From a virus (lineage: Duplodnaviria; Caudoviricetes): 64,000 nt of DNA. The notes beneath the pieces were generated by a model. The model did no database searches and was not told the DNA's origin. It saw nothing but the letters and a program-made list of their open reading frames with translations. Where the stretch lies: positions 10,055-74,054 of IMG/VR virus record IMGVR_UViG_3300037420_002493; one strand, given 5' to 3'. Each line of letters opens with the position of its first letter. Position 1 is the stretch's first letter. The translations under genes were made by a program, and so were the position numbers. Positions 3,584 to 57,218 of the stretch are shown here, one piece after another.

Positions 3584-3942
3584 GGATCTCTACACCATTC
3601 GTCCCTTTCTACAAATCCATCCAGCTTGGCGTCAAAACGCAATCCAAACAGTCTGACACCTCCCGAGACGAAACTCAGAATGGTGATAGTTTTTCTAAAA
3701 ACAAGTAGTGATTGATGCAGTACTTTGGCATCTCTAGGGTAGAGCAAACACGAGTCCGCTCTCATCAGGACATTGATTGGTCGGTAGTCGTTAGGGTCAT
3801 CATTATTGTCTTGCTGTAACCACGCCCAATCTCGATCGTTGACCCCACCTCGATTGAGTACCGCTTGAATCTCTTTCGGTACTTCACACCTCAGAAATTC
3901 TTGCATTGATTGATATTGCTTCTGCTCAAGGTCTGTCATCAT
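3577..3942 (-). CDS. Hypothetical protein
   Basis: 121 aa ORF overlapping both neighbours. Confidence 0.5.
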   Translation of the reverse strand: MMTDLEQKQYQSMQEFLRCEVPKEIQAVLNRGGVNDRDWAWLQQDNNDDPNDYRPINVLMRADSCLLYPRDAKVLHQSLLVFRKTITILSFVSGGVRLFGLRFDAKLDGFVERDEWCRDPW

Positions 3943-10114: not shown

Positions 10115-10359
10115 AAGGATTTAGAAAGGTCTCCTCCTAGAGTAGGAGCCAAATCGGTCAGCTATGACCGATTTCAAAAACATTGTTACAGCATTTCTAA
10201 ACTTAACTACAATGACAGCTAAGTTTTATACGAAATTCTATAAAGATCAGCAGCTTTGCAGTCGATCGGTCCCTGTCACCACAGGGATTTTTTGTATCTG
10301 TCCGTCGATCGCTGAATTCAGCGTTATATTTGTCAAAGTCTTTGTCCTGACTTCGCTTC

Positions 10360-12177
10360 ATGCCGATCGCAGCTTCAGCAAGAATTGACCTAATCGACTC
10401 TGACCCGAATGTTGTTTCTAACATCCAAGGTGGTCCAGAGCCACAGGATGAATGGCTGCATTTTCGCTTCTCACAGGACTATCCTCAATACCAGCGAATG
10501 CGGCGTGACCCGCATGTTCGGTCTCGCCTAGATAAACGAGTTGATGCAATCCTAGGTCGCAGTGTTTTGGTTGAGGCTCCCAAGAAGCGGGGAGCTGCAA
10601 AAGCCGCAGAGAAAGTTCAGTCCATTCTCGATAAGGTCAAGTACGAAGCGCTTTGTAAGGCGGTACTGAAGTCAGGAATGCTGATTGGATTCAGCGTGCT
10701 GCAAATCGATTTTGTGGAAGATGAGGACGACAAGACTCTACTGATTCCAAAGTGGAAGTTTGTTCCACAATCACGCTTCACCTTTGCCTATCACAAGCCG
10801 GACGATCGGGCAGTTCTAGTGGTCAATGATGATGATCTTGACCCCGCAACCGAGATTTTATTAGTTCATGGCTATGAGCTGAGGCTACTCACCAAACGTG
10901 CTCCTATCTACGGGGAGCGAGTTCCCAAGAACCGATTTCTATGTTTTACGTTTGACTCTGAAGATAGCCCGTGGGGTTTGGGACTGGGCTACTCCATTTT
11001 CCCGTGGTGGGAAGTCAAACGGTGTGCGCTCAAAGCGTGGTTGCTGCACTCCGATCGACAAGGTTCACCACCGACGATCGGAACCACCCCAGCCGACCTA
11101 GACCCCAGCCATAACGACGACCACAAGAAGATCATTGCTGACTTTGAGGGGTTTCTGAAGGCGTTATCTCCGAGCAATTGGGCATCGTTTCCTGAAGGGT
11201 TTACGGCTCAGTTATTGGAAACGATCGGGCAGAGTGGACCAGAGGTGCATCAAGCCCTCATTCGGGAAGCAGACAACCAAATCAGTAAAGTTGTGTTGGG
11301 AGAAGTCCCCTTCTCGGACAAAGACACAGGCAGTTATGCCGCAAATGCATCTCAGGTCGAAGATAGAAGCTCAACCCTGACCGACGGGGATTGCAACCTA
11401 CTGGATGAGCAACTCTATGACGGGTTGTGGTTGCCAACTTTTGAGCTAAACAGCATCGTCGATGATGCCCCGATCGTGCGTCGGGAATCATTCGCAGACA
11501 CGCGCAAAGCCGCCCTTGAGAAGCAGAAGCTAGAGCATTCCAAGGCGGTAGCTGACCGAGACAAAGAACTGCAAGAACTGGGCTATCGTCGCACCGCTCA
11601 GAGTGTACTAGAAATTCATGGTGAAGGGCTGGAGTCGATTCAAACTGACACCGAGAAGCCGCCATTGGTGAGCACGATCGGGGTCGGTGGAACGCAAGCT
11701 CTATTAGGGTTGCTACAGCAAGCGTCGTCTGGAGAGTTGCCGAAAGAGAATGCGGTGGCAGCAATGGTTGCGATGTTTGGGCTTGACGAGAAAACCGCTG
11801 GCGCGATCGTGCCAGAACCGAAGCAAGAAAACTCGCAATCGTCGTCGCTCGATCAGCTTTTTGGAGGAGATACCGCGCCGACGGATACGACTAACTCAGA
11901 TACCCCAGCACCTCAACCGCAGTTTACCGAGCCAGAGTCAGAGCAGGTTGAGACGGTACGGGATGAATTACCCAGCGAGTTTGCCGCAGCCGTTGCAGCG
12001 TTGAGCCGACTGGATACGATCGGGCTTGAGGAATTTGGACTGGTATGGGATGACACGACCGAGTTTGATGAAGCGATCGCAGCGCTAAACCGAATTGAGG
12101 TAGATGGAATAGAGGTTGATATCTCCCTTGACTTTGAGGAGTGGGGGATTTGCCAACCCGATCGTAGTTACTCATGA
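10360..12177 (+). CDS. Portal protein (Mu gp29/DUF935 family) with acidic C-terminal extension
   Basis: YQRMRRDPHVRSRLDKRVDAILG; PWGLGLG; ISKVVLGE; GSYAANASQ. Confidence 0.9.
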   Translation: MPIAASARIDLIDSDPNVVSNIQGGPEPQDEWLHFRFSQDYPQYQRMRRDPHVRSRLDKRVDAILGRSVLVEAPKKRGAAKAAEKVQSILDKVKYEALCKAVLKSGMLIGFSVLQIDFVEDEDDKTLLIPKWKFVPQSRFTFAYHKPDDRAVLVVNDDDLDPATEILLVHGYELRLLTKRAPIYGERVPKNRFLCFTFDSEDSPWGLGLGYSIFPWWEVKRCALKAWLLHSDRQGSPPTIGTTPADLDPSHNDDHKKIIADFEGFLKALSPSNWASFPEGFTAQLLETIGQSGPEVHQALIREADNQISKVVLGEVPFSDKDTGSYAANASQVEDRSSTLTDGDCNLLDEQLYDGLWLPTFELNSIVDDAPIVRRESFADTRKAALEKQKLEHSKAVADRDKELQELGYRRTAQSVLEIHGEGLESIQTDTEKPPLVSTIGVGGTQALLGLLQQASSGELPKENAVAAMVAMFGLDEKTAGAIVPEPKQENSQSSSLDQLFGGDTAPTDTTNSDTPAPQPQFTEPESEQVETVRDELPSEFAAAVAALSRLDTIGLEEFGLVWDDTTEFDEAIAALNRIEVDGIEVDISLDFEEWGICQPDRSYS

Positions 12178-12376
12178 TCGTTGCAGGAGTTGATCTTCAG
12201 TTGGGTTTTGAGGAAGCTTGAGTTGCCAACCCACTCTCAATCTTCAAGCTCGTTGCAGGTTTAGGATCAGGCACTTGCCAACCCACTCTCAATCTTCAAG
12301 CTCGTTGCAGTTGCTGCATTTCAGCAACATACCGACGCCCTTGCCAACCCGCTCTCAGTCTTTATGATCGTTGCAG
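12150..12376 (-). CRISPR. Mini CRISPR array, 4 repeats and 3 spacers
   Basis: Repeats 12150-12186 (degenerate, 37 nt), 12223-12258 and 12275-12310 (identical, 36 nt), 12341-12376 (5 mismatches). Minus-strand repeat CTGCAACGAGCTTGAAGATTGAGAGTGGGTTGGCAA. Spacers 36, 16 and 30 nt. Confidence 0.9.
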
Positions 12377-14316
12377 GGCAACTCCCAAAGCGAAAGCTGG
12401 ATGTGGTTTTGAAGCCGTTTTGACAAGCGCTTTCTTGAAGATCTTGAAGATACCCCAGTTTTGCGGGTTGCTGACTCGCTACAGGTGTCACGAAGTCTAG
12501 CTGTGTCAGGGATTTCAGAATTTACAAGCATCCCTTTTCCTCCACTTGCCTGCGTCCTTCGCAATGTATGCGGATTGCGGGCAGTTCTAGGGATCGGAGG
12601 CACTAACACAACGGTTAATCCCTGACCAGACGAATCCGGTGATCCTTTGGCTGCATCCTCAGCAGGTTCACAAACAGTCGTGACTTGTACTTGACTGTTA
12701 GGCTCTGGCATGAGCAAGCCTTGTCGAATCGCTGGGGCAATTCGCAAGGTTCTGTTTTGGACGGGCATCAACTTGCCACACGTCCCGTAAGTGACAGAGC
12801 TAAGGAAGTTTGCACTTCCCACTCCGTCTCTGTCTCCTCTCCACCCACAACCCCCGTGTTTGGGATTGCAGTAGTAGACGCGGTTTCGCGGCTTGTGCCT
12901 GCGTCCGCATTGAGGGCACACTTGAGAGGTAAAGGCTTCACTGGCTTTCTCGGTTCCGATTCCGCCCGCCAGTTGCATCTTTTCCTCTAAATACTTCGCT
13001 TGGGTGGGCATCTCCCACATGTTGTTTCGAGACACTTGTTTGATGCGACGATTGCCCTTCTTTCTGCCCTTGGGCAATCGGTCCAAATCACCCACGTAAA
13101 TTTTGCCGACCTTACGTTCAACTGCCCAATCGACAGCGGTACGAGTAATGGTGTGGTTGGCATAGTTAAGTCTGATCCGGTAATAATCAGCGGCTTTTTG
13201 CTGACCCATGTAGAGACGATAATCCCGCTTGCTTCTGCGTCTCAAGGGTTTGGTGGATTGCTGATTGAGTGCAATGAGTGAGCGTCCCTTACCATCCAGC
13301 CCTTCTCTACGACGTTGCCGAATCATTCGCCATGCGTACTTGGCATCGCTGCCTGTGCGCTTTTTGCCTTGCCGTTGTCGCTCATTATCTTCTTCCTGCA
13401 ATCTGCGATAGGTAGCCTTCTCCTCAACAGAGAGGTATTGTCGGAATTGCCCCTTAAACACTCGCGCTCTTGCACGATTAATAGCTCGGTAGCGTCCGTC
13501 TCGCTCCCGCTTGAGAGCACAGATATCTTTGCCAGAAATAGTTGCCGTTTCTGCGGTTCCCTCTCCGTTCTGCACGGCAATGACAATGGCACGCTTCTGT
13601 CCAAAGTCTACGGCTGCCACTTGGGTGAGTTCAGGATTCGGTTCAACGGTGTGCTTTGTGCAGAGATGAAGATAGTAATGACCACTGCGAGATTTAGAAA
13701 TCTTAGCGTCACCGTCTAGCACTTTACCCTTTAGCTCTGGAAGTCGCAGCTTCAGTAGATAGGGCTTTGCACCCAGAATTAGCGTGTCTCCTTGGCGCTT
13801 GACGTGTAAGCCGCTGAAAGGAACTGGATAGTAGGACTTGAATCGTTTAGGTAGTTCAGCCTCGTGATCGCCCCGCTTGCGACGAGTAAAACATGCCTTA
13901 ATAGCTGCCTCAAAGGTGCGACAAATCGCATCTGCTGACTGTGCTGGAATGCCATAATCAGGTTTCTTGCTCTTACGGACAGCGATAACCAACCGCTCGA
14001 CACCCTTCTCTTTTCCTTGTTTGGCAGGCTTATTCTCCAACTGCTGAGGGTAGAGACTGTATTCCTGATTGGTGAACGTGCGAGTCAGTTCGTGTGCCCA
14101 TCCAAGCTGGAATAGATTTAAGTAGCTGTTCACCTCGTAAGGTTTGCAGCTTGGGTCAGCCTCTTTTAGGCGCTTGTACTCGTTGCGTTTGTACTGGAGA
14201 TGTTCAACCAACTGGTTATAGATGCGACGACTCGCTGCAAACATTCCTTCCAGCATGACTCTCTGGGTTGGAGTAGGAAAGAATTCAATTGTGAGGGTGC
14301 GAGTCGCTTCCATCAC
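12355..14316 (-). CDS. CRISPR-associated TnpB-derived (Cas12-like) RNA-guided nuclease, rearranged RuvC-II
   Basis: OrfB-type N-term FFPTPTQRVMLEGMFAASRRIYN; RuvC-I AAVDFG; RuvC-II IYVGDL with downstream SEAFTS; Zn finger CPQC..C..C; RuvC-III DRDGVGSAN; adjacent array. Confidence 0.85.
   Translation of the reverse strand: MMEATRTLTIEFFPTPTQRVMLEGMFAASRRIYNQLVEHLQYKRNEYKRLKEADPSCKPYEVNSYLNLFQLGWAHELTRTFTNQEYSLYPQQLENKPAKQGKEKGVERLVIAVRKSKKPDYGIPAQSADAICRTFEAAIKACFTRRKRGDHEAELPKRFKSYYPVPFSGLHVKRQGDTLILGAKPYLLKLRLPELKGKVLDGDAKISKSRSGHYYLHLCTKHTVEPNPELTQVAAVDFGQKRAIVIAVQNGEGTAETATISGKDICALKRERDGRYRAINRARARVFKGQFRQYLSVEEKATYRRLQEEDNERQRQGKKRTGSDAKYAWRMIRQRRREGLDGKGRSLIALNQQSTKPLRRRSKRDYRLYMGQQKAADYYRIRLNYANHTITRTAVDWAVERKVGKIYVGDLDRLPKGRKKGNRRIKQVSRNNMWEMPTQAKYLEEKMQLAGGIGTEKASEAFTSQVCPQCGRRHKPRNRVYYCNPKHGGCGWRGDRDGVGSANFLSSVTYGTCGKLMPVQNRTLRIAPAIRQGLLMPEPNSQVQVTTVCEPAEDAAKGSPDSSGQGLTVVLVPPIPRTARNPHTLRRTQASGGKGMLVNSEIPDTARLRDTCSESATRKTGVSSRSSRKRLSKRLQNHIQLSLWELPCNDHKD
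12434..12470 (-). ncRNA. Candidate anti-repeat (tracr/omega-scaffold part)
   Basis: Minus strand CAACCCGC-11 nt-ATCTTCAAG ATCTTCAAG is collinear with the repeat complement CAACCCAC-5 nt-ATCTTCAAG. Confidence 0.45.
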
Positions 14317-14522
14317 GATTCCTCAACTAACTCATCTTCATGGGCAGAGTCTTCAAACAGGTGTGGACGATCGAACTGGACAAAATACGTGAATCCAGGA
14401 CGCGACCAGCATGAACCGGGAGCGGTTAACGCATAGAGCACAGCACGAATCACACCCGCATCGTTATCGCTCGTTCTGACCCGTTGCCCAATTTGAAACC
14501 GACAGGGAGGCAGACTATACAC
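14313..14522 (-). CDS. Small SH3/KOW-like protein
   Basis: RFQIGQRV..GVI..PGFTYFVQFD; paralog at 48389; stop overlaps effector ATG. Confidence 0.6.
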   Translation of the reverse strand: MYSLPPCRFQIGQRVRTSDNDAGVIRAVLYALTAPGSCWSRPGFTYFVQFDRPHLFEDSAHEDELVEES

Positions 14523-14784
14523 GGTGACACTCCCCCTGTGGAATCTGGGCTAATAACTCAGGCGCATCAGCTTCTAGATGAGTAAGATTCTCGTTGACCA
14601 ACCTTCTCCCAGCCCTCCAAGTCTCTTCGGTAGAGGGAAGAATCCGATCGGTCTCAGTGTCTCCTATCTCCTGCCCAAAGGGGTCAAGAACGGCTGTTTT
14701 GTAGCCTCCGATGACTTCGATCGGGCAGATTAAATGACCGCGATATCTAAAGCTGCAACCCCACAGATAAATGTCTTCTCTCAT
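14515..14784 (-). CDS. Hypothetical protein
   Basis: Paralog of 48129-48392 (RGxLI..VLxPFGxEIGDT..APEL). Confidence 0.6.
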   Translation of the reverse strand: MREDIYLWGCSFRYRGHLICPIEVIGGYKTAVLDPFGQEIGDTETDRILPSTEETWRAGRRLVNENLTHLEADAPELLAQIPQGECHRV

Positions 14785-15071
14785 GACTCAACTACTCCAA
14801 TAATCCTGTCTTCGTGAATGGTTTCTACCTCATCTCCTTCGTCTCCACTCTCAAGGTGGTAATCCCATCCAGGCTCACAGTTCTCCGCAAAGGCAATGGC
14901 AACGCGAGTAAACCGACAGCCGCAAATTCTGCCTTCAGCAATCTCGTCTTTGCTGCTCCCTCTCACTTTGTAGCGAACGGTTTGCCAAATCTCGTATTTG
15001 GGCTTTGGAGTAGGGTTACTCAGGTAGTGGTAGAGTTTTTGTTCAAGTTTGGTTAATGCTGCTTTTGCCAT
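14781..15071 (-). CDS. Small SH3/KOW-like protein
   Basis: PKYEIWQTVRY..GRICGCRF..PGWDY. Confidence 0.6.
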   Translation of the reverse strand: MAKAALTKLEQKLYHYLSNPTPKPKYEIWQTVRYKVRGSSKDEIAEGRICGCRFTRVAIAFAENCEPGWDYHLESGDEGDEVETIHEDRIIGVVES

Positions 15072-15074
15072 GTC

Positions 15075-15428
15075 TCAGTCCTCCACAATGTCAGTTTCGT
15101 AAACCTCGATAATCCTGGCATCGGCTTCGATGCGGTAATACCAGCCGGGGTCTTCGCCTCGACCTTGAAGAAAGGCAATACCGACGCGCACGAAATGGAA
15201 GCCACAGACCCGACCTTGTTTAATTTCTGGGTTGTCGTTGTCGTAAGATTTATCGTCGTAAGACGTGTATTGAACGAGTTGCCACAAGTTGTATTTGGGC
15301 TGAGTTCTGGGGTGATTCAGCAACTCTTGCAAGTGCTGCTCAAATTCCTCAACCGGATCTGGCGTCACGCCAGTATTGATAGGGGTGGTCATAAAAACCT
15401 CGTAAATTAGCCCAACTGATAAAGACAA
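15075..15428 (-). CDS. Small SH3/KOW-like protein
   Basis: PKYNLWQLVQY..GRVCGFHF..PGWYY; tandem paralog of 14781. Confidence 0.6.
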   Translation of the reverse strand: MSLSVGLIYEVFMTTPINTGVTPDPVEEFEQHLQELLNHPRTQPKYNLWQLVQYTSYDDKSYDNDNPEIKQGRVCGFHFVRVGIAFLQGRGEDPGWYYRIEADARIIEVYETDIVED

Positions 15429-15859
15429 ACTTGCTCTGCATTGCTCAGTCCCAACTCGCGCAGAATGAAGCGCGAAATCTCCGAAGGGAACTGAGTTAAA
15501 GACAGCTCAATGCGGTTGCTAAACACACCGAGAAAGTGAGCGCGTCCTTGCTGTGACACTGCTTCTTCGATCAGGGCGTCTAAATCCTCAATCACCGATT
15601 GCAGAATCTCAGACTCATCGATCGCAAAGCCCTCTTGGATGTAACTCACTAAACGCCTTGCTTTTGGAGGTAAGCCCCCATGCTTGAGAATTAGGTCGGT
15701 ATCTACCTGGTCAAGACATTCTCTTGCCAGTTCTCGTGCGGCAAGTTCTGCCTCAGTGACAGTGCCAGTGGCGTATTCCTTGCCGTTGATTTTGAAGACG
15801 ATTAAGCCGTAGAAGTCGTCTTGGGACTTCTGAATTGCGGTTCTAACTGCTGTGAGCAT
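15407..15859 (-). CDS. Hypothetical protein
   Basis: 150 aa ORF in the same operon. Confidence 0.55.
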   Translation of the reverse strand: MLTAVRTAIQKSQDDFYGLIVFKINGKEYATGTVTEAELAARELARECLDQVDTDLILKHGGLPPKARRLVSYIQEGFAIDESEILQSVIEDLDALIEEAVSQQGRAHFLGVFSNRIELSLTQFPSEISRFILRELGLSNAEQVCLYQLG

Positions 15860-15930
15860 GACTCGCCTAATTCCTAGTTCAGTGGTGTAGAGGGTGAGGC
15901 ATCCTGATCGGATCAGGATGCCAAAGGGAG

Positions 15931-16197
15931 TTAGAAGGCTTGGCAGGTCTGAGCGAGTTCTTTCTCTTCGACGCGCCAGTCTTGACCCGTAGCAGCTTTT
16001 AAGGTTCGGTTGAGCTGGTCGTTAGCCCAGATATCTTGACGAACCAGGACATCGAAATCTTGAAAATCTAGGGTGGCTTGGCAGCTTTCAAAGCGTCTGG
16101 CTTTGACGTGGTAGCGACGAGTAACGACTCCGGTATAGGTAGCGCTCGGAGCGGTGATGAGACGGGTTTGCTTGGAGGGTGCGATCGTTGTTAGCAT
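15931..16197 (-). CDS. Hypothetical protein, first gene of leftward operon
   Basis: 88 aa; AAAGGA upstream. Confidence 0.55.
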   Translation of the reverse strand: MLTTIAPSKQTRLITAPSATYTGVVTRRYHVKARRFESCQATLDFQDFDVLVRQDIWANDQLNRTLKAATGQDWRVEEKELAQTCQAF

Positions 16198-16364
16198 GAC
16201 GTAAATCCTTTCGTGGGGTTTGTGGAGGAAGCGCTTGAAGTTGTCCAGACCCAGAGCGCTTTCTCTATGCTTTCAATATTACCTATTAAGTAATGCTTGT
16301 CAAGTAATACCTATGAAGATAAGATATATCTGTAGGCAAACGAGATACTTGAGAGGTGATACCT

Positions 16365-16619
16365 ATGGGGCAATTCTTGGTGAAGATCACCTATACGAAG
16401 GACTTTCCGGGAATTGGAAAGCAGATACGCGAATACAGACGGCAATCAGATAAGCCTCTAGCTGAGTTGGCAGCAGAGGCAGGTATCAGCGTTCCTCACT
16501 GGAACCGAGTTGAAAACGAAAAAGTTGGAGAGCTGCCACTAGAAACGCTTCGAGGTATCGAAAAGGCTCTTGGCGTTGATCTAGGAGTACGCTTCGATGA
16601 TTCATCCTCAAGCCAGTAA
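16365..16619 (+). CDS. XRE-family HTH repressor, divergent from effector operon
   Basis: IGKQIREYRRQSDKPLAELAAEAGISVPHWNRVENE. Confidence 0.85.
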   Translation: MGQFLVKITYTKDFPGIGKQIREYRRQSDKPLAELAAEAGISVPHWNRVENEKVGELPLETLRGIEKALGVDLGVRFDDSSSSQ

Positions 16620-16756
16620 CCCTCTCGCTCTTCCATCGGTTTCCTTGGAGAGCCGATCGCGGGTTAGCAAAGCAAATAGAGGATAATGAAATTAGTCGAT
16701 TTAAGAGTGTTCGCCAGTTTCTCAACTCAATTCCCACACGTCAACATGAGATCACT

Positions 16757-17206
16757 ATGATCCCGATGTTCAGTGCTAACGGAAAATTACCGCCTGGTAT
16801 CCATCGTTGTACATGGAAAGAATTTGTGGAGCGCTTTGGAATCACGCCCCATCGCTTGAACCTAATTGCTGGGCTTAAAAGGGCAATGGAGCACTTACAG
16901 ATAGCGGGATGTTCCATTATTTACATTGACGGCAGTTTTGTAACCGACAAAGTAGTGCCTGGCGATTTCGATGCTTGTTGGGAAACTAGAGGTGTTGATG
17001 CAAAAAAACTAATCTCGATCGCTCCCTCCTTGTTGGACTTTTCTAACAGACGAGCTGCTCAGAAAGCAGAGTACGGCGGAGAGTTATTTTTTGCTGGAGT
17101 ACCCGCAGATAATGCTGGAAATTTATTTCTAGATTTCTTCCAGATGGATAGAGATGGTCAGCCCAAAGGGATTATTGCTATTGATTTAGAGAGGTGGCAG
17201 CCGTGA
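16757..17206 (+). CDS. DUF6932-like nucleotidyltransferase-fold protein (putative toxin)
   Basis: GKLPPGIH..W.EF.ERFG; YIDGSFVTDK..PGDFD. Confidence 0.7.
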   Translation: MIPMFSANGKLPPGIHRCTWKEFVERFGITPHRLNLIAGLKRAMEHLQIAGCSIIYIDGSFVTDKVVPGDFDACWETRGVDAKKLISIAPSLLDFSNRRAAQKAEYGGELFFAGVPADNAGNLFLDFFQMDRDGQPKGIIAIDLERWQP

Positions 17207-17622
17207 TTGAAAACGAGCAGCAATATCACATCACGCAGGCTCAAGCTCAGAAGTTTGAAAAGGCTTTAGAGCGTATGCTTCAATCATCCGAGCAAGAGCG
17301 CGAGACAAATCCTCTGCTTTGGCAAGCTCAAATCTCTGCTTTGGAGAGTCAGCTTAGCGACCTGCGCGAAGAAATAGAGGAATACAACACAAGCCGCGTG
17401 AAGAGCGAGGGGCTTGAGACTAGATACGGTGAACTGATTACGGTACTGGTTGAAGATGTAATACGGGTAAAACAGGAAAATCGACCGCTTTCTAAAATTA
17501 TTGCCTCGATTGCAGTTGCAAGAGTAGTGGTGACAATCTTGCATGTTTTATGGAGTATGCCTATAGAGGGTACTATCTCTCTAAGCTCAGCACTTAAAGA
17601 AAAGAAGCAATCTGAAGGATGA
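17203..17622 (+). CDS. Partner of DUF6932-like gene (helical antitoxin-like N-term)
   Basis: GTGA overlap with upstream stop; IENEQQY..AQISALESQLSDLREEIEEY. Confidence 0.55.
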   Translation: MIENEQQYHITQAQAQKFEKALERMLQSSEQERETNPLLWQAQISALESQLSDLREEIEEYNTSRVKSEGLETRYGELITVLVEDVIRVKQENRPLSKIIASIAVARVVVTILHVLWSMPIEGTISLSSALKEKKQSEG

Positions 17623-17723
17623 TCGATTTCAGCGACGATCGTGATGACTGAATCGGATTGACGGGCGATCATTTGTCCTAGTTTGGTAATCTTGTAGAAT
17701 TAACCCCCTAGCTTAGGAATTCT

Positions 17724-18062
17724 ATGAGTAGCCAGAATCAGATTACAGCGATGTTAATGCTCAAAGTCTCCGGTCGAGACACCTGGCAAGGCATGGGAGA
17801 AAAAGCCTATAGTGTCCTTCCACGAACCGGAGAGTTTATCGAGATAGACGTTGATGGGACAGCCTATTGGTGCAAGGTTGTCGCTGTTGCTCATTCATCC
17901 GAGCCAACGACCAATATTGGCGACATTTATGCCGTCCCACTGGGAAAATCAACGGACGTGCTAAAACAACTTTTTGATTCTACTGAGTCACCTCATTTTG
18001 ATTCTGCTGAGTGGTCTCAGGAGCTTGAGGAGAAAGATGCAGGGTGGATTGGTAAGGTATAG
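17724..18062 (+). CDS. Hypothetical protein
   Basis: 112 aa; AGGA upstream. Confidence 0.55.
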   Translation: MSSQNQITAMLMLKVSGRDTWQGMGEKAYSVLPRTGEFIEIDVDGTAYWCKVVAVAHSSEPTTNIGDIYAVPLGKSTDVLKQLFDSTESPHFDSAEWSQELEEKDAGWIGKV

Positions 18063-18225
18063 CAGGGCTGGCATTTTTGCTGCGATCTCCTTTGTTGATT
18101 TTGCTGATCAAGGACTTGAAATCGGTCAGACGTGACCGATTTGGATTGCTTTTTGACTTGTCGAATTCAACAAGTTATCTGCTAGAGATCTGATCGCAGC
18201 CCTAGATAGTGATTAGCAAACCTGA

Positions 18226-18255
18226 TTGACAGTCCTCCATTCATCAAGATATATT
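18226..18255 (+). promoter_or_regulatory. Sigma70-type promoter upstream of NYN gene
   Basis: TTGACA-18 nt-TATATT. Confidence 0.6.
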
Positions 18256-18341
18256 GGGGTTAAGTCATCACCAGTTGGGCTTTATTAGCTCGCTGGCTCC
18301 CGCTGGGTTACGATCCAGTGGGTATTTTGCTTTATAAGGGC

Positions 18342-18980
18342 ATGGATCGCGTAACTTTTATCATTGACGGATTTAATCTGTATCACTCAGTTCGTCAAGC
18401 TTCTAGGGATTCAGGTGGTTCGTCTACAAAATGGCTTGATATCAAAAGCTTGTGTTCGTCGTATCTCTATCTTTTTGGTAGAGCCGCCGTCCTCCATGAG
18501 ATTTATTATTTTTCTGCTCTAGCTAACCACCTAGAAGCCGTTAATCCTGACGTAACCGAAAGACACAGGAGCTTCATCAAGTGTTTACAGGCAACGGGTG
18601 TGAAGACGGAACTTAACCGATTTAAAAGAAAGTCCATGACCTGTCCCTCATGCAGGCACGGTTTTAACAGGTATGAGGAGAAAGAAACAGATGTGGCAGT
18701 GGCAGTCAAACTGCTGGAGCTATTTTTCACTGATAACTGTGACATAGCGGTACTTATAACAGGCGACACTGATTTGGCTCCAGCTGTTAGAACCGCCAAT
18801 CAGATTTTTGCCAGCAAGAAAGTTGTTTTCGCCTTCCCTTACAAGCGAAAGAATCAGGAGCTATTGAGATTAGCGCCAGGGTCGTTTGACATCAATAAGA
18901 GGAAGTATTTGGCGCATCAATTTTCTGATCCATATATACTGCCAGACGGTTCAAAGATTCACAAACCTAGCAGTTGGTAA
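18342..18980 (+). CDS. NYN/LabA-DUF88 (PIN-fold) ribonuclease
   Basis: FIIDGFNLYH; EKETDVAVA; ITGDTDLAP. Confidence 0.9.
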   Translation: MDRVTFIIDGFNLYHSVRQASRDSGGSSTKWLDIKSLCSSYLYLFGRAAVLHEIYYFSALANHLEAVNPDVTERHRSFIKCLQATGVKTELNRFKRKSMTCPSCRHGFNRYEEKETDVAVAVKLLELFFTDNCDIAVLITGDTDLAPAVRTANQIFASKKVVFAFPYKRKNQELLRLAPGSFDINKRKYLAHQFSDPYILPDGSKIHKPSSW

Positions 18981-19063
18981 AAACTCTATAGATTAAACAT
19001 AAGGCTATGCTTTAAAGGCAAAAGTTATTGCTATTGCTACCCTACAAGCATTTAGGCAGTCCT

Positions 19064-19603
19064 ATGACCGTATCCACCTACAAATGGACGATCGACCGTT
19101 ATCATCAAGCCGTTGATGCTGGGATTTTTCATGACCAGTCGATCGAGCTATTGAAGGGAGAACTTGTTTTAATGCCACCTGAAGGACCGGAACACGCTCA
19201 TCGCTGCGAGACGGCTGCACGGTATTTAGAGCGTCTGTTTGGTGAGGGTTGGTGGTCACGTCAGGGTAAGCCCATCACTCTAGCCGATTCTGAGCCGCAG
19301 CCTGATATCGCGATCGTGCGTGAGCAAGATTACACGAACGGGCATCCTACCCCTAACGACATTCGGCTTGTGGTGGAATACGCCTACAGCACTCAAGCAA
19401 AAGATACGGGCATGAAGCGAGACGTTTATGCAGAAGCAGGCATTTTAGATTATCTAGTGATTGACCTGAAACGATCTGCCGTGATTCATTACGCTAATCC
19501 TGTTGAGGGCAGCTACACCACAGAGCAAACGTTCACCGATGGCATGATTCAGATTGGGCAGGTCACGATCGATGTTCGGAGACTGCTGAGATCTGTACTT
19601 TAG
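19064..19603 (+). CDS. Uma2-family endonuclease
   Basis: WTIDRYHQ; ELLKGEL; EPQPDIAI; LVVEYA; KRDVYAEAGI. Confidence 0.9.
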   Translation: MTVSTYKWTIDRYHQAVDAGIFHDQSIELLKGELVLMPPEGPEHAHRCETAARYLERLFGEGWWSRQGKPITLADSEPQPDIAIVREQDYTNGHPTPNDIRLVVEYAYSTQAKDTGMKRDVYAEAGILDYLVIDLKRSAVIHYANPVEGSYTTEQTFTDGMIQIGQVTIDVRRLLRSVL

Positions 19604-19677
19604 AAGTGATGACCAAATCGGTCAGCAGTCCTGCTACAGTAACCTGGTTGTAGCTGCAATTTCTAAGAGTATCAGTA

Positions 19678-20271
19678 ATGGATAATGACCCTCTACTAAC
19701 AGAGAGTGAAATTGAAAGGCTTCAGGAGCGGCTGAGTCAGGAGGTAGGAGATTTTGTTGTGGGTCTTGCAAGGGAAGGGGAGCGAGCAGCGGTGGTTTTG
19801 GGTGCCGCTCGCTTAGATGTAAGCCTTGAAAACCTTCTCAAGAAGTTAATGCACCCTCATCCTGGTGGTTCGGATAATCTCTTTGATTCTCAGCGTCCTC
19901 TTAGCTCCTTTTCTACCAAAATTGCTCTTGCATATAGATTAGGCGTGATCGACAGAAGCTTTGAACACGCTTTGCAGATGGTAAGAAAAATTCGGAATGA
20001 TTTTGCTCATTCCATTGCTGTTGCGAGTCTTTCTGCCCCACCCTACAAAAATCAGCTTAACGAGCTAATTAAAGACGTTAAAAAAGATGGGGATTCTTTC
20101 GACAATATAGCGAGTGGCTTGAGAGAACAAAGATTTCCTGAAGAAGTATTGGATTTCTGTGCTGCCGTTATGATATTGCTCATGCGACTTGAAATGCTGA
20201 CAGAAGTGAGCGTTCAGTTCCAACCAGCCAGGACAGCAAAACTAGATAAAACTCGATTTCTAGAAAATTGA
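19678..20271 (+). CDS. MltR-like / HEPN-motif protein
   Basis: ERAAVVLGAARLD; PLSSFSTKIALAYRLG; RNDFAH (Rx4H). Confidence 0.7.
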   Translation: MDNDPLLTESEIERLQERLSQEVGDFVVGLAREGERAAVVLGAARLDVSLENLLKKLMHPHPGGSDNLFDSQRPLSSFSTKIALAYRLGVIDRSFEHALQMVRKIRNDFAHSIAVASLSAPPYKNQLNELIKDVKKDGDSFDNIASGLREQRFPEEVLDFCAAVMILLMRLEMLTEVSVQFQPARTAKLDKTRFLEN

Positions 20272-20432
20272 AGCTGCTTGAGTCGCACAACAACAATTGG
20301 TCATAGCTGACCAATTTCAGGAAGGGACGATCGTCCCTTCCACTGAATCCATTCGGTGAAGCCAACACATAAATCATCCCTTCTTTTCTAAACAGCGTGT
20401 GCTAATGTCAGGGAAAGAGTTAACGCTGTATT

Positions 20433-20648
20433 ATGCCAAGAAGCACAAAGATTTCGACAAACATTGTTTTAGGTGACACAGCCGATGAGCGCGATCGTCG
20501 CCTAAATTCATTACGTGAAATCGCCTCATACTGCGGCTATACAGGTAGGTATGGCGGTAATATTAGCGAGTTGCTATGTGCGATTGCCGATTTACCGGAA
20601 GAGGATAGAAAGGTGATTGCGGGCGTGCTCCAGAAATTTTTGAAATAG
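20433..20648 (+). CDS. Small putative DNA-binding regulator
   Basis: 71 aa; NISELLCAIAD; precedes operator-containing promoter. Confidence 0.45.
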   Translation: MPRSTKISTNIVLGDTADERDRRLNSLREIASYCGYTGRYGGNISELLCAIADLPEEDRKVIAGVLQKFLK

Positions 20649-20651
20649 GGG

Positions 20652-20680
20652 TTGACGCTTCATTTAGCATACGCTAAATT
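20652..20680 (+). promoter_or_regulatory. Promoter with palindromic operator
   Basis: TTGACG-17-TAAATT containing ATTTAGC-N4-GCTAAAT (20662-20679). Confidence 0.6.
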
Positions 20681-21571: not shown

Positions 21572-21665
21572 TGGTAGTCGTAATGAAATCGGTCATAGCT
21601 GACCGATTTCACCTGCATAAAGTCAGGCATAATGGGGCAGCCTCTACGACTCTACACCTCACCTA

Positions 21666-22991
21666 ATGTCGATCAATTTTTCAGAGCTTAAAACAACTGA
21701 AGATGTTTACATCGAAATTGGTCGCCGCTATGTCGCTGAAACGCGGCTCCAGGAAGCGATCGCGGCTGCATTAAACGGCACTTACTATGAATTTGCTGCC
21801 GCCAAGAAGAAGGCGTCAGGTAAGAAAAACTGTAATCCCGCAAAGAGTCATTTCTGCCAGACCCCAAACGGAACAGGAAGCTGTGTCTCGCTGGGCAAGC
21901 AATGCAAATTCAAGCCAAGTGGCAGCGTCAAGCAAGCCGCAGTTTACACTGGCGAAAATGCGTCATCCGCGATCGCGGCACCTGAAAAACCTAAAAAATC
22001 AACAAAGAAAACGACCAAGAAGGCAGAAGCGGTTCCTGTAAAAGAAATTGACACAGCAGGAATTCATGAAGATTTTGTTCCTCTTTATAAAATGGCTAAT
22101 GGTTTCAAGCCTGATGAGATTAAACTGACGGATGATCAAGTCGAGGCTGCGAAGGGGTTTATGGAAGACAAATATAAAGGGACTCCAAAACAAAAGCAGA
22201 TCAAAAAAGAAGGCAAAACCACAGACGAGGAGTCGCAGGCTTTGGCTAATTGGCTAGGAATCTCCTATCAAGAAATGAGTGCCAGGATCTGGAAAGCTAC
22301 TTCGGTAGAAGATTCTGACGGGGGAATTCTAGCGGCGGATATTTTAGCAGCTAAAGCTTTGCATAAATTACCATCCGCTACAGCCGAACAAATCGCCAAA
22401 GGTGCTGAAAAGAAAGGGGTTTACGATTTTGATCCTACCAAGCCATTAAAACGATGGATGAGGATTAAAGGCGAGGGTGGGGCAGAAGAGTTTATCAAAA
22501 AATACCAAGATAATATTGGGAAAGAGATCACCGAGGATAATTTTTTTGGAACTTCCCACCTTAGCGCCAATCAAATGTCGGCATTCTCAACAGGTGCAAA
22601 CGTAATCTATCAGGTTGAGGCAAAACTTGATGGGACGGGGCAAGGGAAATATGTAGATCACTACAAGAAGACAATGAGCGAAGGGGAGATTCTATTCCCT
22701 CCATACTCAAAATTCAAAGTTGTCAAAGTCGTCGCGCCAAAAACAGATCCCCTAAGCAAAGAGGAACATACTTCTATTGCTATCCATGATGCAGTCGAGG
22801 AAGCAAAATTTATGTCGTCTTTGATTGGAACCTCAATGAAGGGGCAATACAAGTATCTCACAGGAAAAACACTACCAAAAGACTGGAAAGACCAAGTAGA
22901 GCTTGCCAAGAAAGCCAAAGAAAAATTGAAAAACTTCGATAGCCAAGATGGGCATCTTGATGCCTATACCATCCATTTACAGGAGATCTAA
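21666..22991 (+). CDS. Head-associated protein with C-terminal ADP-ribosyltransferase (R-S-ExE type) domain
   Basis: LKRWMR; FFGTSH; SEGEILFPPYSKFKV; Cys-rich N-term. Confidence 0.7.
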   Translation: MSINFSELKTTEDVYIEIGRRYVAETRLQEAIAAALNGTYYEFAAAKKKASGKKNCNPAKSHFCQTPNGTGSCVSLGKQCKFKPSGSVKQAAVYTGENASSAIAAPEKPKKSTKKTTKKAEAVPVKEIDTAGIHEDFVPLYKMANGFKPDEIKLTDDQVEAAKGFMEDKYKGTPKQKQIKKEGKTTDEESQALANWLGISYQEMSARIWKATSVEDSDGGILAADILAAKALHKLPSATAEQIAKGAEKKGVYDFDPTKPLKRWMRIKGEGGAEEFIKKYQDNIGKEITEDNFFGTSHLSANQMSAFSTGANVIYQVEAKLDGTGQGKYVDHYKKTMSEGEILFPPYSKFKVVKVVAPKTDPLSKEEHTSIAIHDAVEEAKFMSSLIGTSMKGQYKYLTGKTLPKDWKDQVELAKKAKEKLKNFDSQDGHLDAYTIHLQEI

Positions 22992-23248: not shown

Positions 23249-23366
23249 AACCTATGTCCGAGAGTCGATCGTAAAACTCATTACAACAGCCAAGCAAATC
23301 GGTCATAGCTGACCGATTTCAACTAGATAAAAACGAGCAGATTTAACCCAAGACAAGCCCCTCTCA

Positions 23367-24104
23367 ATGCTCAAACTTCCCACCAATCCAACTGCCGATC
23401 AGATTAAAGCGATCGTCACCGCCACCATCCGTGAAACATTCGAGGACGACGCCACTCTCACAGGCGATATCAAGCCCTATGGGAAAAGCGGATGGCAGGT
23501 TACGTACAAAAGTGGTGATATTGAGTTCATCCTCGAATGGGACGGCAACGAATTCACCAAATATCCCAAGCCTAGTAACTTCAGCGAGTTTGAGTTTGGT
23601 GCCATCATTGACAAGGTTCTGAAGTGGAACGGTCTAGATATTGGCGTTGAGTACAACCCAGGTCAAGTAAGGTTCCCAGGTCGTAAGAACTCAAAGAAAC
23701 TACGATCGGGTTATGGGCATATCCGTAACCATGTGGGGGCAGACGGAGAGGCATTAGACTGCTACATCTATTCAGGGTTGCTAAATGACTCGCAATCTGG
23801 GTCTAATTTGATTTTCCGCGTCACTCAGCTTGCCGACGATGGCGACTTCGACGAGTACAAGTTTATGCTCGGGTATGCCAGTAAGGGAGCTGCTCAGGAT
23901 GCATACTTGCAGGAGATGCCCAAAGAGTTCTTCGGAGGAATTGAAGCGGTCGATCGGGAGCACATTGACGACTACCGCAAACCCTCGAACTACGCAGAAT
24001 CTGAGGTTCTGTCAGATAGTGAGTGGGATGGATTAGCAGGAATTGATGATGCGTCGATCGCGGATGCGCTAGACACGATGGCTGATCCTGGAAATCGGTC
24101 ATAG
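23367..24104 (+). CDS. Phage protein with inorganic-pyrophosphatase-like domain
   Basis: YGHIRNHVGADGEALDCYI; DEYKFMLGY..AQDAYL. Confidence 0.7.
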   Translation: MLKLPTNPTADQIKAIVTATIRETFEDDATLTGDIKPYGKSGWQVTYKSGDIEFILEWDGNEFTKYPKPSNFSEFEFGAIIDKVLKWNGLDIGVEYNPGQVRFPGRKNSKKLRSGYGHIRNHVGADGEALDCYIYSGLLNDSQSGSNLIFRVTQLADDGDFDEYKFMLGYASKGAAQDAYLQEMPKEFFGGIEAVDREHIDDYRKPSNYAESEVLSDSEWDGLAGIDDASIADALDTMADPGNRS

Positions 24105-24122
24105 CTGACCGATTTGATAACC

Positions 24123-27023: not shown

Positions 27024-27722
27024 ATGAAACCCTATGAATTTCTAGTTCGGTGGAACTCAGAAGGTGTGCTGCAAGGGGCACACGTCATTTTTCAAGAGCA
27101 GTTAACGGATTCTCTTGGGAACACGACTCCTGTGATTCATCCGGCTCAACCTGTGGCGATCGGAGAAGCGCAGGGCTTTCCCTTGGAAGATGTTCTAGGG
27201 GAAGTAAATGCAGCAGCACTAAAGACTATTGATGAGTTAAAGCAGTCTCACCAAGACGAGACTGAGGCAAACACCGCGGCACATAATGCTGCAATTCAGC
27301 AGCTTCAAGACGCGCATCAGACCGAATTGCTCGTTCTAAAACAAGAGCACGAAGCGAGTTTGAGCCAGTTGCGGCAATCCTATGAGCAACAGCTTGAGCA
27401 ACTCACCCAAGAACTAGAATCGTTCAAGAACCCTCCCATTAAGTGGAGTCAGTTTCGTTTAGCCATGATGGGTAATGCGGCTTACGATCGGGTGGAAGAA
27501 TCGCTATCTGACAGCAAAGAGGGAACGCGGCTGCTGATTAAGTTGACCACAGTGGTTAGCATGGACAATCCGAACCTTGTGGTGCTCCAATCGGTCTGGA
27601 ATACAGCGCTTGATTTAGTGGGCTATCCAACCGCAGATGACATTGCAGAGTGGAATGCAAACGCAACGGGCACGAATGTTCCGATCCGATTCGATGACAA
27701 CGGGAAAATCACAATAATCTAA
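27024..27722 (+). CDS. Hypothetical coiled-coil protein (fibre-associated)
   Basis: 232 aa ORF. Confidence 0.55.
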   Translation: MKPYEFLVRWNSEGVLQGAHVIFQEQLTDSLGNTTPVIHPAQPVAIGEAQGFPLEDVLGEVNAAALKTIDELKQSHQDETEANTAAHNAAIQQLQDAHQTELLVLKQEHEASLSQLRQSYEQQLEQLTQELESFKNPPIKWSQFRLAMMGNAAYDRVEESLSDSKEGTRLLIKLTTVVSMDNPNLVVLQSVWNTALDLVGYPTADDIAEWNANATGTNVPIRFDDNGKITII

Positions 27723-32066: not shown

Positions 32067-32854
32067 TGCCTACCCTGAAAATCATCAAACCAACGATCGC
32101 GAAGCAAAGTACTGCTCAAGCGTCAACACTTCCTCCCTGCTATCGAGTCAATTTGGAAGCAGGAACCTACTCAATCCTGAAGATTGAATACGCAGGCTCG
32201 AAGCACTACAAGGTAGGGTTTCCTAAACCTATCCAGTCATCCGACAAAACCAAGTCTTTTCAAACCTGGTGTATCTTTGCTGAGGATTTAGAAATTCCAG
32301 GGGATGCAGAAACGATCGTGGGCACAACGGGTGAAGTAAAACTCGGAATGCGCTACCGATCGCAGCGCAATAATGAACTGAATCCCGATGGTTCCTGTAA
32401 CGTGACATCATTTGCCATGTGCCTCGACTTCCTAGGAGCCAAGCGCAAAGAGAGTGAGGGGCAGTTTGAGGATGAACTGTATCGCTACTGCGAAAACCAC
32501 GATTTGTGCCGTCACACTCCGGAGGGTTTAAAGTCGCTAGCAGAAGCCTATGGAGTGAAAGATGATTTTCACTCAGATGCAGATATTGAGCAGATTAAAG
32601 CCCATCTGAGATTGGGGCTTCCAGCAGTGCTGCAAGGGTACTTCACTGGCTTTGGTCATGTTGTCGCGCTGAACGGCTGTAATGATGATGGATTCTGGGT
32701 GTACGACCCCTATGGGGAGTGGAATATTTGGGGCTACACCCGCAACAGTATCTGGGGTGAAGATGGACCGGGAGACAATATCTTTTACTCCGATCGTCTG
32801 ATTCAAGATACGTGCGATCGGGATGGCATTTGGGCACATTTACTGTCGAAGTGA
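32066..32854 (+). CDS. C39-family peptidase (possible endolysin)
   Basis: SCNVTSFAMCL (C); GHVVAL (H); VYDPYG (D). Confidence 0.8.
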   Translation: MPTLKIIKPTIAKQSTAQASTLPPCYRVNLEAGTYSILKIEYAGSKHYKVGFPKPIQSSDKTKSFQTWCIFAEDLEIPGDAETIVGTTGEVKLGMRYRSQRNNELNPDGSCNVTSFAMCLDFLGAKRKESEGQFEDELYRYCENHDLCRHTPEGLKSLAEAYGVKDDFHSDADIEQIKAHLRLGLPAVLQGYFTGFGHVVALNGCNDDGFWVYDPYGEWNIWGYTRNSIWGEDGPGDNIFYSDRLIQDTCDRDGIWAHLLSK

Positions 32855-32881
32855 AATCGGTCATAGCTGACCGATTGTTCA

Positions 32882-48634: not shown

Positions 48635-48954
48635 GTGGACAGAGGGGGCGATTCGCGTGGCTTTGGTAGGTTAGCGATCGTCCCTTTGAAATTGAAATCG
48701 GTCACGTCTGACCGATTTGGTGAAGTTTTTCCCTAAAAATTTGGTTTTGGTAGCCACAAATGCGCTTGCTACGTTTCATGCTTGTTGCTTCTCGAAAGAG
48801 GGGTGATTTTTATTTGTACATCCCTAAGATGTGGGTTCTTTAGGTCAATCTACTCTTCACGTAGATTTTTGTCAAACTCACAAGTAGATTAATAGTATTG
48901 ACACGTCAATTTACTACGCTAGACTTTGAGAAGTACACTTTAAGAGACGAGTAT

Positions 48955-51264: not shown

Positions 51265-51459
51265 ATGCTGACAATCAACGATATCCAGAACGCCATCTAC
51301 CAAGAAGGCTCGATCGCGTTCCTAAACAAAGTTCATGATGCTCTCACTCAAATTGGCAAGCATGACCCCTTCTCTGCACATCTGGCAGAACAGATGCAAG
51401 AGGTGATTCTCTGGCAAGAAGATTTTTCTCAATTTCAAGACGCTGATCTTGTTGCTTAA
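51265..51459 (+). CDS. Hypothetical protein
   Basis: 64 aa. Confidence 0.5.
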   Translation: MLTINDIQNAIYQEGSIAFLNKVHDALTQIGKHDPFSAHLAEQMQEVILWQEDFSQFQDADLVA

Positions 51460-51470
51460 ATCGGTCAGCT

Positions 51471-51875
51471 ATGACCGATTTGCTGAACCATATTAAGTTG
51501 CTCCTAAAAATGCTGAAATTATCCGAATATCCCAGCGCGATCGCTGACGCTTCAATGGCTGTAAACGATGCTGACGCTCAAATCACAAAACTCAGACGAC
51601 TTATTGTTCAGGCGGAAAATGCGGCGGATGTCGAAGTTGCCTATGCTTTAGATCTGAAAAATGATAATCAGCGCAAAGCTAGACGATTGGAGATTCTCAA
51701 CTCTGATTTGTCTTATCTCGCCACCCTGCAATCGTTAGATGAGGGTGTTGCCGAGAAGTCGAAGAAAATGGCAGAACTTGAACGGCTTCGGAATGAATTT
51801 TCTGTAATCAAATTAGAAACTCGATTGGCGATCGCTCAAATTGGTGTGGAAGCTCGCGAGTTAGCTGGGCTGTAG
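51471..51875 (+). CDS. Coiled-coil hypothetical protein
   Basis: ATG lies within a palindrome copy. Confidence 0.5.
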   Translation: MTDLLNHIKLLLKMLKLSEYPSAIADASMAVNDADAQITKLRRLIVQAENAADVEVAYALDLKNDNQRKARRLEILNSDLSYLATLQSLDEGVAEKSKKMAELERLRNEFSVIKLETRLAIAQIGVEARELAGL

Positions 51876-56848: not shown

Positions 56849-57154
56849 ATGTCTTTTGCTTGGCTTCCAGCATTTCAGCGTTTATGTTTGTCTTCTGCCG
56901 AAAGTAGCGCCACTCCAGAGTTCTCTTCTGGTGCTATTCAACCTGAAGAAGTGATTCTTAAAACCTTGTCAACATCCACACCACAGACTCTTGGTGAAAT
57001 TAAAGACGCCTTAAAGAACGCAGGGTTTGAGATGGATTATGCACCTCTTCAGGGCTTGATGAGGGTGCTTATTCATCAGAAAAAAGTTCGTCCTGACTGG
57101 CTCATCGGTGAGCCGCCCGTCAGAGTGTTTTTCTCTCTAAACAGTACCCGTTGA
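56849..57154 (+). CDS. Small wHTH-like protein
   Basis: AGGAG RBS; ends in a palindrome copy. Confidence 0.5.
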   Translation: MSFAWLPAFQRLCLSSAESSATPEFSSGAIQPEEVILKTLSTSTPQTLGEIKDALKNAGFEMDYAPLQGLMRVLIHQKKVRPDWLIGEPPVRVFFSLNSTR

Positions 57155-57218
57155 AATCGGTCATAGCTGACCGATTTGACGGGTTTTTTATTCGCTCTGC
57201 CCTTCAGCGAGAAAGGTT

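Follow-up and report, generated by a model that had tools for sequence, protein, structure and literature searches.

Why would a prophage carry a CRISPR array whose spacers imperfectly resemble the genes for its own portal and minor head proteins? We examined this question in a window of 64,000 nucleotides, the whole stretch of DNA analysed here, which spans positions 10055-74054 of an IMG/VR provirus record of 74 kb (75% complete by estimate) that was itself excised from a 219.5-kb contig. The carrier is a temperate Mu-like cyanophage, present as a cyanobacterial prophage. Three of its genes are central to what follows: a Mu-type portal gene (10360-12177; Pfam); a gene for a head protein with an ART domain (21666-22991; Pfam), the relatives of which are annotated as head morphogenesis proteins of the SPP1 gp7 type; and a gene for a minor head protein with an inorganic-pyrophosphatase (InPase) domain (23367-24104), a domain known in both minor head proteins and ejected proteins.

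A CRISPR module in a variable island of a cyanophage

Adjoining the portal gene is a self-contained, adaptation-less, type V-like CRISPR module consisting of an effector gene, a guide-RNA scaffold and an array (Table 1). The module lies in a variable island that is missing from the contig of a related phage, L009, when that contig is compared with the window by blastn. In L009, the homologue of window position 20675 onward begins within ~420 bp of the portal end. A Pfam scan of the island for transposition genes found none, and Cas1 was absent from the 74-kb provirus record.

The remainder of the island includes, at 16757-19603, genes encoding a DUF6932 (nucleotidyltransferase-like) protein, a protein with an NYN ribonuclease domain and a Uma2 endonuclease-like protein, which are possible additional defence or toxin-antitoxin cargo. 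Elsewhere, a perfect palindrome of ~26 nt (11-bp stem, 4-nt loop) recurs at eight or more intergenic sites of the prophage (21584-21609, 10147-10176, 23297-23325, 24091-24116, 32851-32876, 48692-48719, 51458-51480 and 57152-57179). The same palindrome is kept in L009 and in a second related contig, L008, and is probably either a hairpin that acts in termination or RNA stability, or else a site for protein binding.

The array is genuine. It begins inside the last codons of the effector ORF, at its stop codon, and runs to the end of the convergent portal gene. Spacers S3 and S2 are both short relative to the norm of 34-40 nt in the effector's family, and, given these short spacers and the degenerate repeats at its ends, the array in the window may be eroding. 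An Rfam search of the window returned no match.

Table 1 Coordinates of the CRISPR module and of the resident sites that its spacers resemble (window positions)
Feature	Position	Strand	Description
Variable island	12156-20674 (8.5 kb)		CRISPR module plus DUF6932, NYN and Uma2 genes (Pfam)
Effector gene, 652 aa, TnpB/Cas12f fold	12355-14313	-	Pfam Cas12f1-like_TNB and HTH_OrfB_IS605
Guide-RNA scaffold (tracr/omega-like)	12463-12666	-	Eight helices, then 8-nt anti-repeat 12463-12470; overlaps final ~330 nt of effector ORF
Repeat 1	12341-12376	-	86% identical to repeats 2 and 3; holds effector stop codon; 3' part 12345-12352 pairs with anti-repeat
Spacer S3 (30 nt)	12311-12340	-	Homologue of codons 19-28 of ART-domain head protein gene
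Repeat 2	12275-12310	-	Identical to repeat 3
Spacer S2 (16 nt)	12259-12274	-	Homologue of portal VPEPK site; truncated relative to 34-40 nt in the family
Repeat 3	12223-12258	-	Identical to repeat 2
Spacer S1 (36 nt)	12187-12222	-	Homologue of codons 2-13 of pyrophosphatase-domain gene
Repeat 4, terminal, degenerate	12150-12186	-	Overlaps stop codon of convergent portal gene
Self homologue of S1	23367-23405 (match 23370-23405)	+	25/36; 5' flank ATG; start of InPase-domain gene
Self homologue of S3	21717-21749 (match 21720-21749)	+	22/30; 5' flank ATT; in ART-domain gene
Self homologue of S2	11806-11824 (match 11809-11824)	+	12/16; 5' flank ATC; in Mu-type portal gene

A predicted TnpB-like effector with a putatively relocated glutamate

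As in type V systems, the module has a single effector that combines a TnpB/RuvC fold with a zinc finger. Beyond its Pfam domains, the protein matched the NCBIfam guided_TnpB model with 77 bits, under the cut-off of that model. Its AF2 model (pLDDT 75) gave AsCas12f, OsCas12f, TnpB and Cas12m2 as the best Foldseek matches, with a probability of 1.0 to Cas12f, TnpB and Cas12m structures; in this fold search Cas12f and TnpB were nearest, followed by Cas12m, Cas12o, Cas12p and TranC.

The effector ORF is intact, and the zinc finger is present, as are the RuvC-I and RuvC-III aspartates (Asp236 and Asp496), both invariant in the alignment. The RuvC-II position is occupied by an invariant glycine, Gly408, which a profile alignment places on the catalytic Glu of AsCas12f, and an alternative glutamate, Glu459, lies just before the zinc finger and is likewise invariant. 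Both residues were found in 13 of 13 sequences of this alignment, which includes the nearest ~400-aa TnpBs. The idea that the Glu-to-Gly change had left the effector nuclease-dead was dropped when the alignment revealed the alternative Glu. Glycine in place of Glu together with a conserved compensating Glu is the pattern of TnpBs with a rearranged RuvC-II site (RIIr type), and TnpB clades in which this change is compensated by another Glu are considered active (Altae-Tran et al. 2023, PMC10691335). Judged by its alignment, then, the effector, 652 aa long, branched off from a TnpB clade whose RuvC-II site is rearranged, and it may plausibly retain nuclease activity.

The C-terminal tail of the effector (residues 530-652) is predicted by AF2 to be disordered. 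Despite this prediction, its ~130 codons (12355-12760, minus strand) are open in 19 of 19 aligned homologues, and the tail appears to have a dual use, as protein and as scaffold RNA.

A covarying guide-RNA scaffold within the effector ORF

The scaffold emerged when the terminal ~330 nt of the ORF, together with the first repeat, were aligned across seven loci and a consensus structure was derived by RNAalifold. The consensus has 54 pairs, and compensatory changes occur in 36. Across the alignment, 94.2% of cells were paired, compared with 30-40% when the partners were slid by 1-3 columns, and 0 of 500 shuffles reached the observed values. In the window's own row of the alignment, the scaffold pairs are preserved.

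Helix 9, which joins 12470-12463 to positions 12352-12345 of the first repeat, was 100% paired in all loci, with 6 of its 8 pairs covarying; on this covariation it is the anti-repeat:repeat duplex, and the 3' portion of every repeat pairs with the anti-repeat in this way. The module thereby has a tracrRNA-like scaffold with an anti-repeat, as type V systems do. A simple search for duplexes between the repeat and upstream sequence was not significant, and the anti-repeat surfaced only in the multi-locus covariation.

Related modules in other cyanobacterial phages

Searching 5.8 billion proteins yielded 24 relatives of the effector, and a profile search of 1.8 billion representatives recovered ~17 full-length relatives, followed by ordinary TnpBs of ~400 aa. 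Named members of the family come from Leptolyngbya, Trichocoleus and Funiculus. Their neighbourhoods look like those of phages or prophages, all of them being cyanobacterial phage-like contexts. No mention of the family accessions was found in the literature searched.

Arrays that begin at the effector stop codon, with 4-10 repeats and spacers of 34-40 nt, are present at 6 of the 7 other loci with distinct effectors (L002, L004, L012, L014, L015 and L016). Both repeats and spacers differ among these loci; an adjacent array is a conserved feature of the family, as it is in type V systems. At the Leptolyngbya locus, L001 (L001:11862-11900; Leptolyngbya sp. FACHB-541, GCA_014695875.1), the scaffold is followed by just one repeat, without an array, and this repeat adjoins the start of a DUF932 gene, such that the sequence of that gene occupies the guide position.

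Two of the other arrays also contain spacers that resemble nearby genes. One is that of L014, where the contig that bears the array also encodes an 88-aa protein; two spacers resemble the 5' part of its gene, with identities of 34/36 and 31/35. The mismatches fall at positions 2 and 3 of the first spacer and at positions 4, 5, 7 and 27 of the second, so that 5 of 6 lie at positions 2-7. Clustering of mismatches at the flank end in otherwise near-identical self copies is what selection against self-targeting is expected to produce, and this speaks for interference with matching DNA by members of the family. At L012, one spacer shares its 3' 17 nt exactly with the sequence around the start codon of a neighbouring gene, whereas the 5' half of the spacer is diverged and corresponds to the upstream non-coding stretch. 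Two neighbouring spacers of the L012 array (L012:3534-3568 and 3605-3639) are ~85% identical to each other and may represent two alleles of one protospacer or a drifted duplicated unit.

Spacers resemble resident virion genes in a codon-aware manner

An earlier, sequence-only reading of this DNA had paired each of the three spacers with a site in a resident head gene. The coordinates, sequences, translations and identities of all three pairs were reproduced exactly on recomputation (25/36, 22/30 and 12/16 for S1, S3 and S2, respectively). For S1, the self match was the top match in the window and was reached by 0.3% of 300 shuffled spacers, and none of 200 shuffles attained the peptide identity of 9/12. 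For S3, 1% of shuffles reached the nucleotide match and 5% reached the peptide match of 7/10. S3 has a further match on the minus strand (27286-27315), also 22/30 and so equal to the ART-gene match in nucleotides; it lies antisense within gene 27024-27722, has no ATN flank and is probably due to chance. The S2 match is at chance level when taken alone, with 13/16 found elsewhere in the window; the reading itself had called so short a match weak. S1 is clearly above chance, S3 is moderately so, at the borderline, and S2 is not on its own.

Considered together, the three pairs share features that single match scores do not capture. Third codon positions hold 16 of the 23 spacer-self mismatches (binomial P = 4e-4), and each of the three self matches lies on the sense strand and keeps the reading frame. 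The joint occurrence of codon bias, reading frame, sense strand and an AT flank (see below) is not expected of a chance match.

Spacers probably derive from orthologues in a third phage lineage

Two short public contigs from related phages carry the orthologous genes: L008 encodes an InPase orthologue with 79% amino-acid identity, and L009 carries the portal end and an ART orthologue with 77-82% nucleotide identity. The best S1 match in L008 (23/36) falls on the orthologous site, and the best S2 match in L009 (13/16, L009:550) falls exactly on the orthologous portal VPEPK site, with the same ATC flank. The orthologous S3 site in L009 matches at 17/30, tied for best in that contig. Because L008 and L009 are homologous to the window, these matches are partly expected by transitivity and are not independent proof. 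Summed over the three sites, the spacers agree with the window at 59/82 positions and the window agrees with the relatives at 59/82 (both ~72%), with 53/82 between spacers and relatives.

Divergence of a non-coding array would ignore codons, and the third-position bias therefore indicates that the spacer-self differences arose between two functional orthologues. These observations support derivation of the spacers from orthologues of the portal gene and the two minor-head-protein genes, and the divergence bears the mark of coding constraint. The extent of the divergence, being that between separate lineages, favours a donor in a third lineage over mutation of the carrier genes after self-acquisition, and we infer that this donor belonged to the same phage group.

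The opposite history would make the spacers relics of self-targeting, taken from the phage's own ancestor, with the resident genes subsequently gaining escape mutations. Such a history could describe L014, in which only 2 and 4 bases separate the self copies from their spacers and almost all of these fall in the seed; a third-position bias is also expected if the gene rather than the spacer has changed. The window spacers, however, as counted here, differ from the resident genes at 8-11 positions each, several amino-acid changes included, which far exceeds the needs of escape, and the spacer-window divergence equals that between the window and L008 or L009. We therefore regard relics of self-targeting as an unlikely origin of the window spacers.

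The sequence-only reading had attributed the spacers to orthologues in related phages and had proposed a search of sequence databases, in which near-perfect hits in orthologous genes would count as support. The third-position bias and the roughly equal three-way distances sustain the attribution to orthologues; the near-perfect protospacers did not appear. Exact or synonymous-codon protospacers of S1 and S3 were absent from IMG/VR, JGI metagenome contigs and 185,579 species genomes (one per prokaryotic species). Comparing the window array with INPHARED phages by blastn gave only noise at E~9, the L015 array had no match in the same collection, and a search of the carrier's own provirus record with the array recovered only the array itself. 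Formally, then, the outcome that the reading had named as counting against it, that nothing matches better than the self copies, holds in present databases. Sampling of the phage group is very thin, however, with a single close orthologue each of the InPase and ART genes among 5.8 billion proteins, so that the failure to find targets is weak evidence. When IMG/VR was scanned for relatives of the InPase gene and of the gene matched by the L014 spacers, nothing useful came up.

Three further matches were judged to be chance: a 23-nt match of the array to a Leptolyngbya record, which lies in a coding region; an isolated exact match of 15 nt between S3 and L010; and an isolated 14-nt match between an L015 spacer and the window, which is rich in a common cyanobacterial palindrome. 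L010 is a more distant relative whose InPase and ART domains belong to a single fusion protein of 599 aa (L010:43-1842). A different, downstream gene of L010 (L010:2077-3594) starts with an N-terminal motif like that encoded by S1 (21/36 to S1), and this N-terminal module seems to be mobile between head proteins.

Flank, strand and seed of the self sites

The three bases 5' of the window self sites are ATG, ATC and ATT, with AT at -3/-2 in 3 of 3 cases, and the corresponding sites in the relatives are preceded by ATA, ATC and ATT. One of the L014 self matches has an ATG flank and the other GCA. ATN is thus the likely 5' flank. The repeats end without AT at the flank positions, which would keep the array from being targeted.

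Every self copy in the window is mismatched within the first 6 flank-adjacent bases (at positions 6, 6 and 3). In Cas12a, Cas12f and TnpB, the seed is placed in the flank-adjacent region. The earlier proposal that self copies escape through seed mismatches is consistent with this pattern: flank-proximal mismatches are present at 3 of 3 window sites, and at L014 the cluster at positions 2-7 supports it further, suggesting that resident copies would be spared in this way.

All six informative spacers, from the window, L014 and L012, are sense to their target genes, and five of them lie within the first 30 codons. Work with dCas12a indicates that a sense-spacer arrangement also suits a transcription roadblock on the template strand, and a roadblock may accordingly be read beside cleavage as the mode of action.

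The same arrangement might instead reflect autoregulation, in which partially complementary guides bind the phage's own head genes and tune them, in the manner of CRISPR-like regulatory RNAs, long-form tracrRNA and TldR. The sense orientation near gene 5' ends, the missing canonical RuvC-II Glu and the ATN flank kept at the self sites would all suit such a role. Known regulatory guides, however, require flank-proximal complementarity, and here it is the flank-proximal bases that mismatch (first at 3 or 6 in the window, at 2-7 in L014 and over the whole 5' half in L012), which should block R-loop nucleation. In addition, the two Asp residues and the alternative Glu are invariant, which speaks for nuclease function having been kept. 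We consider autoregulation improbable.

A chance resemblance, or a decaying module without present function, would account for the chance-level score of S2, for the equally good unrelated match of S3 and for a control spacer from another array that also reached 25/36 somewhere in 400 kb; the truncated spacers and degenerate end repeats of the window array would fit as well. Against this stand the third-position bias, the in-frame sense matches, the ATN flank at 3 of 3 sites and the S1 peptide identity that no shuffle attained, together with an intact ORF, preserved scaffold pairs and two identical internal repeats. We judge this explanation to have little chance of being correct. An antisense-RNA action on mRNAs is ruled out, as the informative spacers all share the sense of their target mRNAs.

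Exclusion of related phages as the probable function

Collectively, we favour, as a reading with reasonable though far from complete confidence, the view that the prophage module serves for RNA-guided exclusion of related phages while sparing its carrier through mismatches. Spacers would have been taken from a third lineage of the same phage group, and crRNAs would be made in the lysogen or during infection. In incoming relatives, these crRNAs could then guide the effector to template-strand sites, most of them near the 5' ends of genes, where the effector would cut its targets through the relocated Glu or block them by binding only, so that competing relatives are excluded. The resident copies, in which the ATN flank is kept, would be spared by ~28% divergence with a mismatch in the first 6 bases. 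From these features we infer that the module may act in superinfection exclusion.

A more far-reaching version, which we advance only tentatively, is that the module represents an uncharacterised, prophage-specific type V subtype between TnpB and Cas12. Such a subtype would be distinguished by a relocated Glu, a scaffold of ~200 nt embedded in the ORF, an array that starts from the stop codon, an ATN PAM, targets at the 5' ends of conserved virion genes of sibling phages, and self-tolerance that depends purely on seed mismatches.

Examples of phage-versus-phage CRISPR warfare come mainly from archaeal viruses and huge phages. If exclusion of relatives is indeed the function, it would extend to ordinary-sized temperate cyanophages that carry a complete and compact module of effector, scaffold and array. 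The pairs of spacer and self copy, involving homologues of essential genes in the window and the flank-near mismatches at L014 and L012, would provide a natural read-out of the seed and PAM rules of the effector. The location of the scaffold inside the ORF, with the array starting from the stop codon, bears on how omega RNAs split into tracrRNA and crRNA, and the effector, whose flank is not T-rich, is a candidate for a small editor.

Comparison with known systems

[quoted passage not shown] An association of this kind is not seen here, as tnsB, tnsC and tniQ were sought near the module and none was found, and Cas12k was not among the phmmer, profile or Foldseek matches of the effector. The module also differs from dead repressors of the TldR type, given that neither Asp residue nor the alternative Glu has been lost, that the array has multiple spacers and that the self matches carry flank-proximal mismatches.

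Cas12m (V-M) and Cas12c (PMC11013384; PMC11656645) are likewise compact type V effectors on mobile elements for which roadblock interference is possible, and sense targets near gene 5' ends would suit a roadblock of the Cas12m style. Only the general fold is common to Cas12m and the window effector, however, and the profile match to the Cas12m chain (E = 0.83) indicates no meaningful sequence relationship. Moreover, the catalytic Glu appears to have been relocated in the window effector, in contrast to the gradual loss of the site in Cas12m and Cas12c.

Two systems are similar in their proposed ecology. Mini-CRISPR arrays of viruses have been described in interviral conflicts in Sulfolobales (Medvedeva et al. 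2019, PMC6858448; reviewed in PMC11656645). Like the array in the window, they are short viral arrays without adaptation genes, with spacers tied to genes of close relatives and a proposed role in excluding competitors. The Sulfolobales arrays depend on the Cas proteins of the host, and protospacers that match them occur in known sister viruses, whereas the module here has its own effector and scaffold, and its spacers match known relatives at ~65-72%; the matches in L008 and L009 (23/36, 13/16 and 17/30) fall short of the near-perfect protospacers in related viruses that characterize virus-borne mini-arrays. The Cas12r-CRISPR system of Thermus Lalka phages (bioRxiv 10.64898/2026.04.20.719267) similarly pairs a phage-encoded type V effector with an array, lacks an adaptation module and has been proposed to act in conflicts between mobile elements. 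It belongs to a different host and protein family, and its spacers mostly hit integrative elements rather than orthologues of its own structural genes. Interference by Cas12r has been demonstrated experimentally, whereas the window module is known here from sequence alone.

The closest parallels to the effector itself are the rearranged TnpB clades and V-U* branches of Cas12 (PMC10691335), which share a Gly at RuvC-II and an invariant alternative Glu before the zinc finger. An array without other cas genes is a further point in common with the TnpB-derived V-U* branches (PMC10691335) and, as far as they are described in PMC13565253, with the TranC intermediates and Cas12n (Jin et al. 2025). 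The guide is also reminiscent of omega RNA: the scaffold overlaps the 3' end of the ORF, within translated sequence that is predicted to be disordered, just as omega RNA overlaps the end of tnpB, and the repeats resemble duplicated scaffold ends. Compared with the TnpB clades, members of the window family are longer (~620-810 versus ~400 aa) and have, besides a REC insertion, a ~100-aa basic helical insertion and a ~130-aa tail; compared with both the TnpB clades and TranC, they reside in prophages, without a transposase or transposon ends. Thus, the effector fits among the TnpB-derived, array-only V-U branches (PMC10691335) and, to the extent that PMC13565253 describes them, the TranC intermediates, and it could be one of the branches already catalogued.
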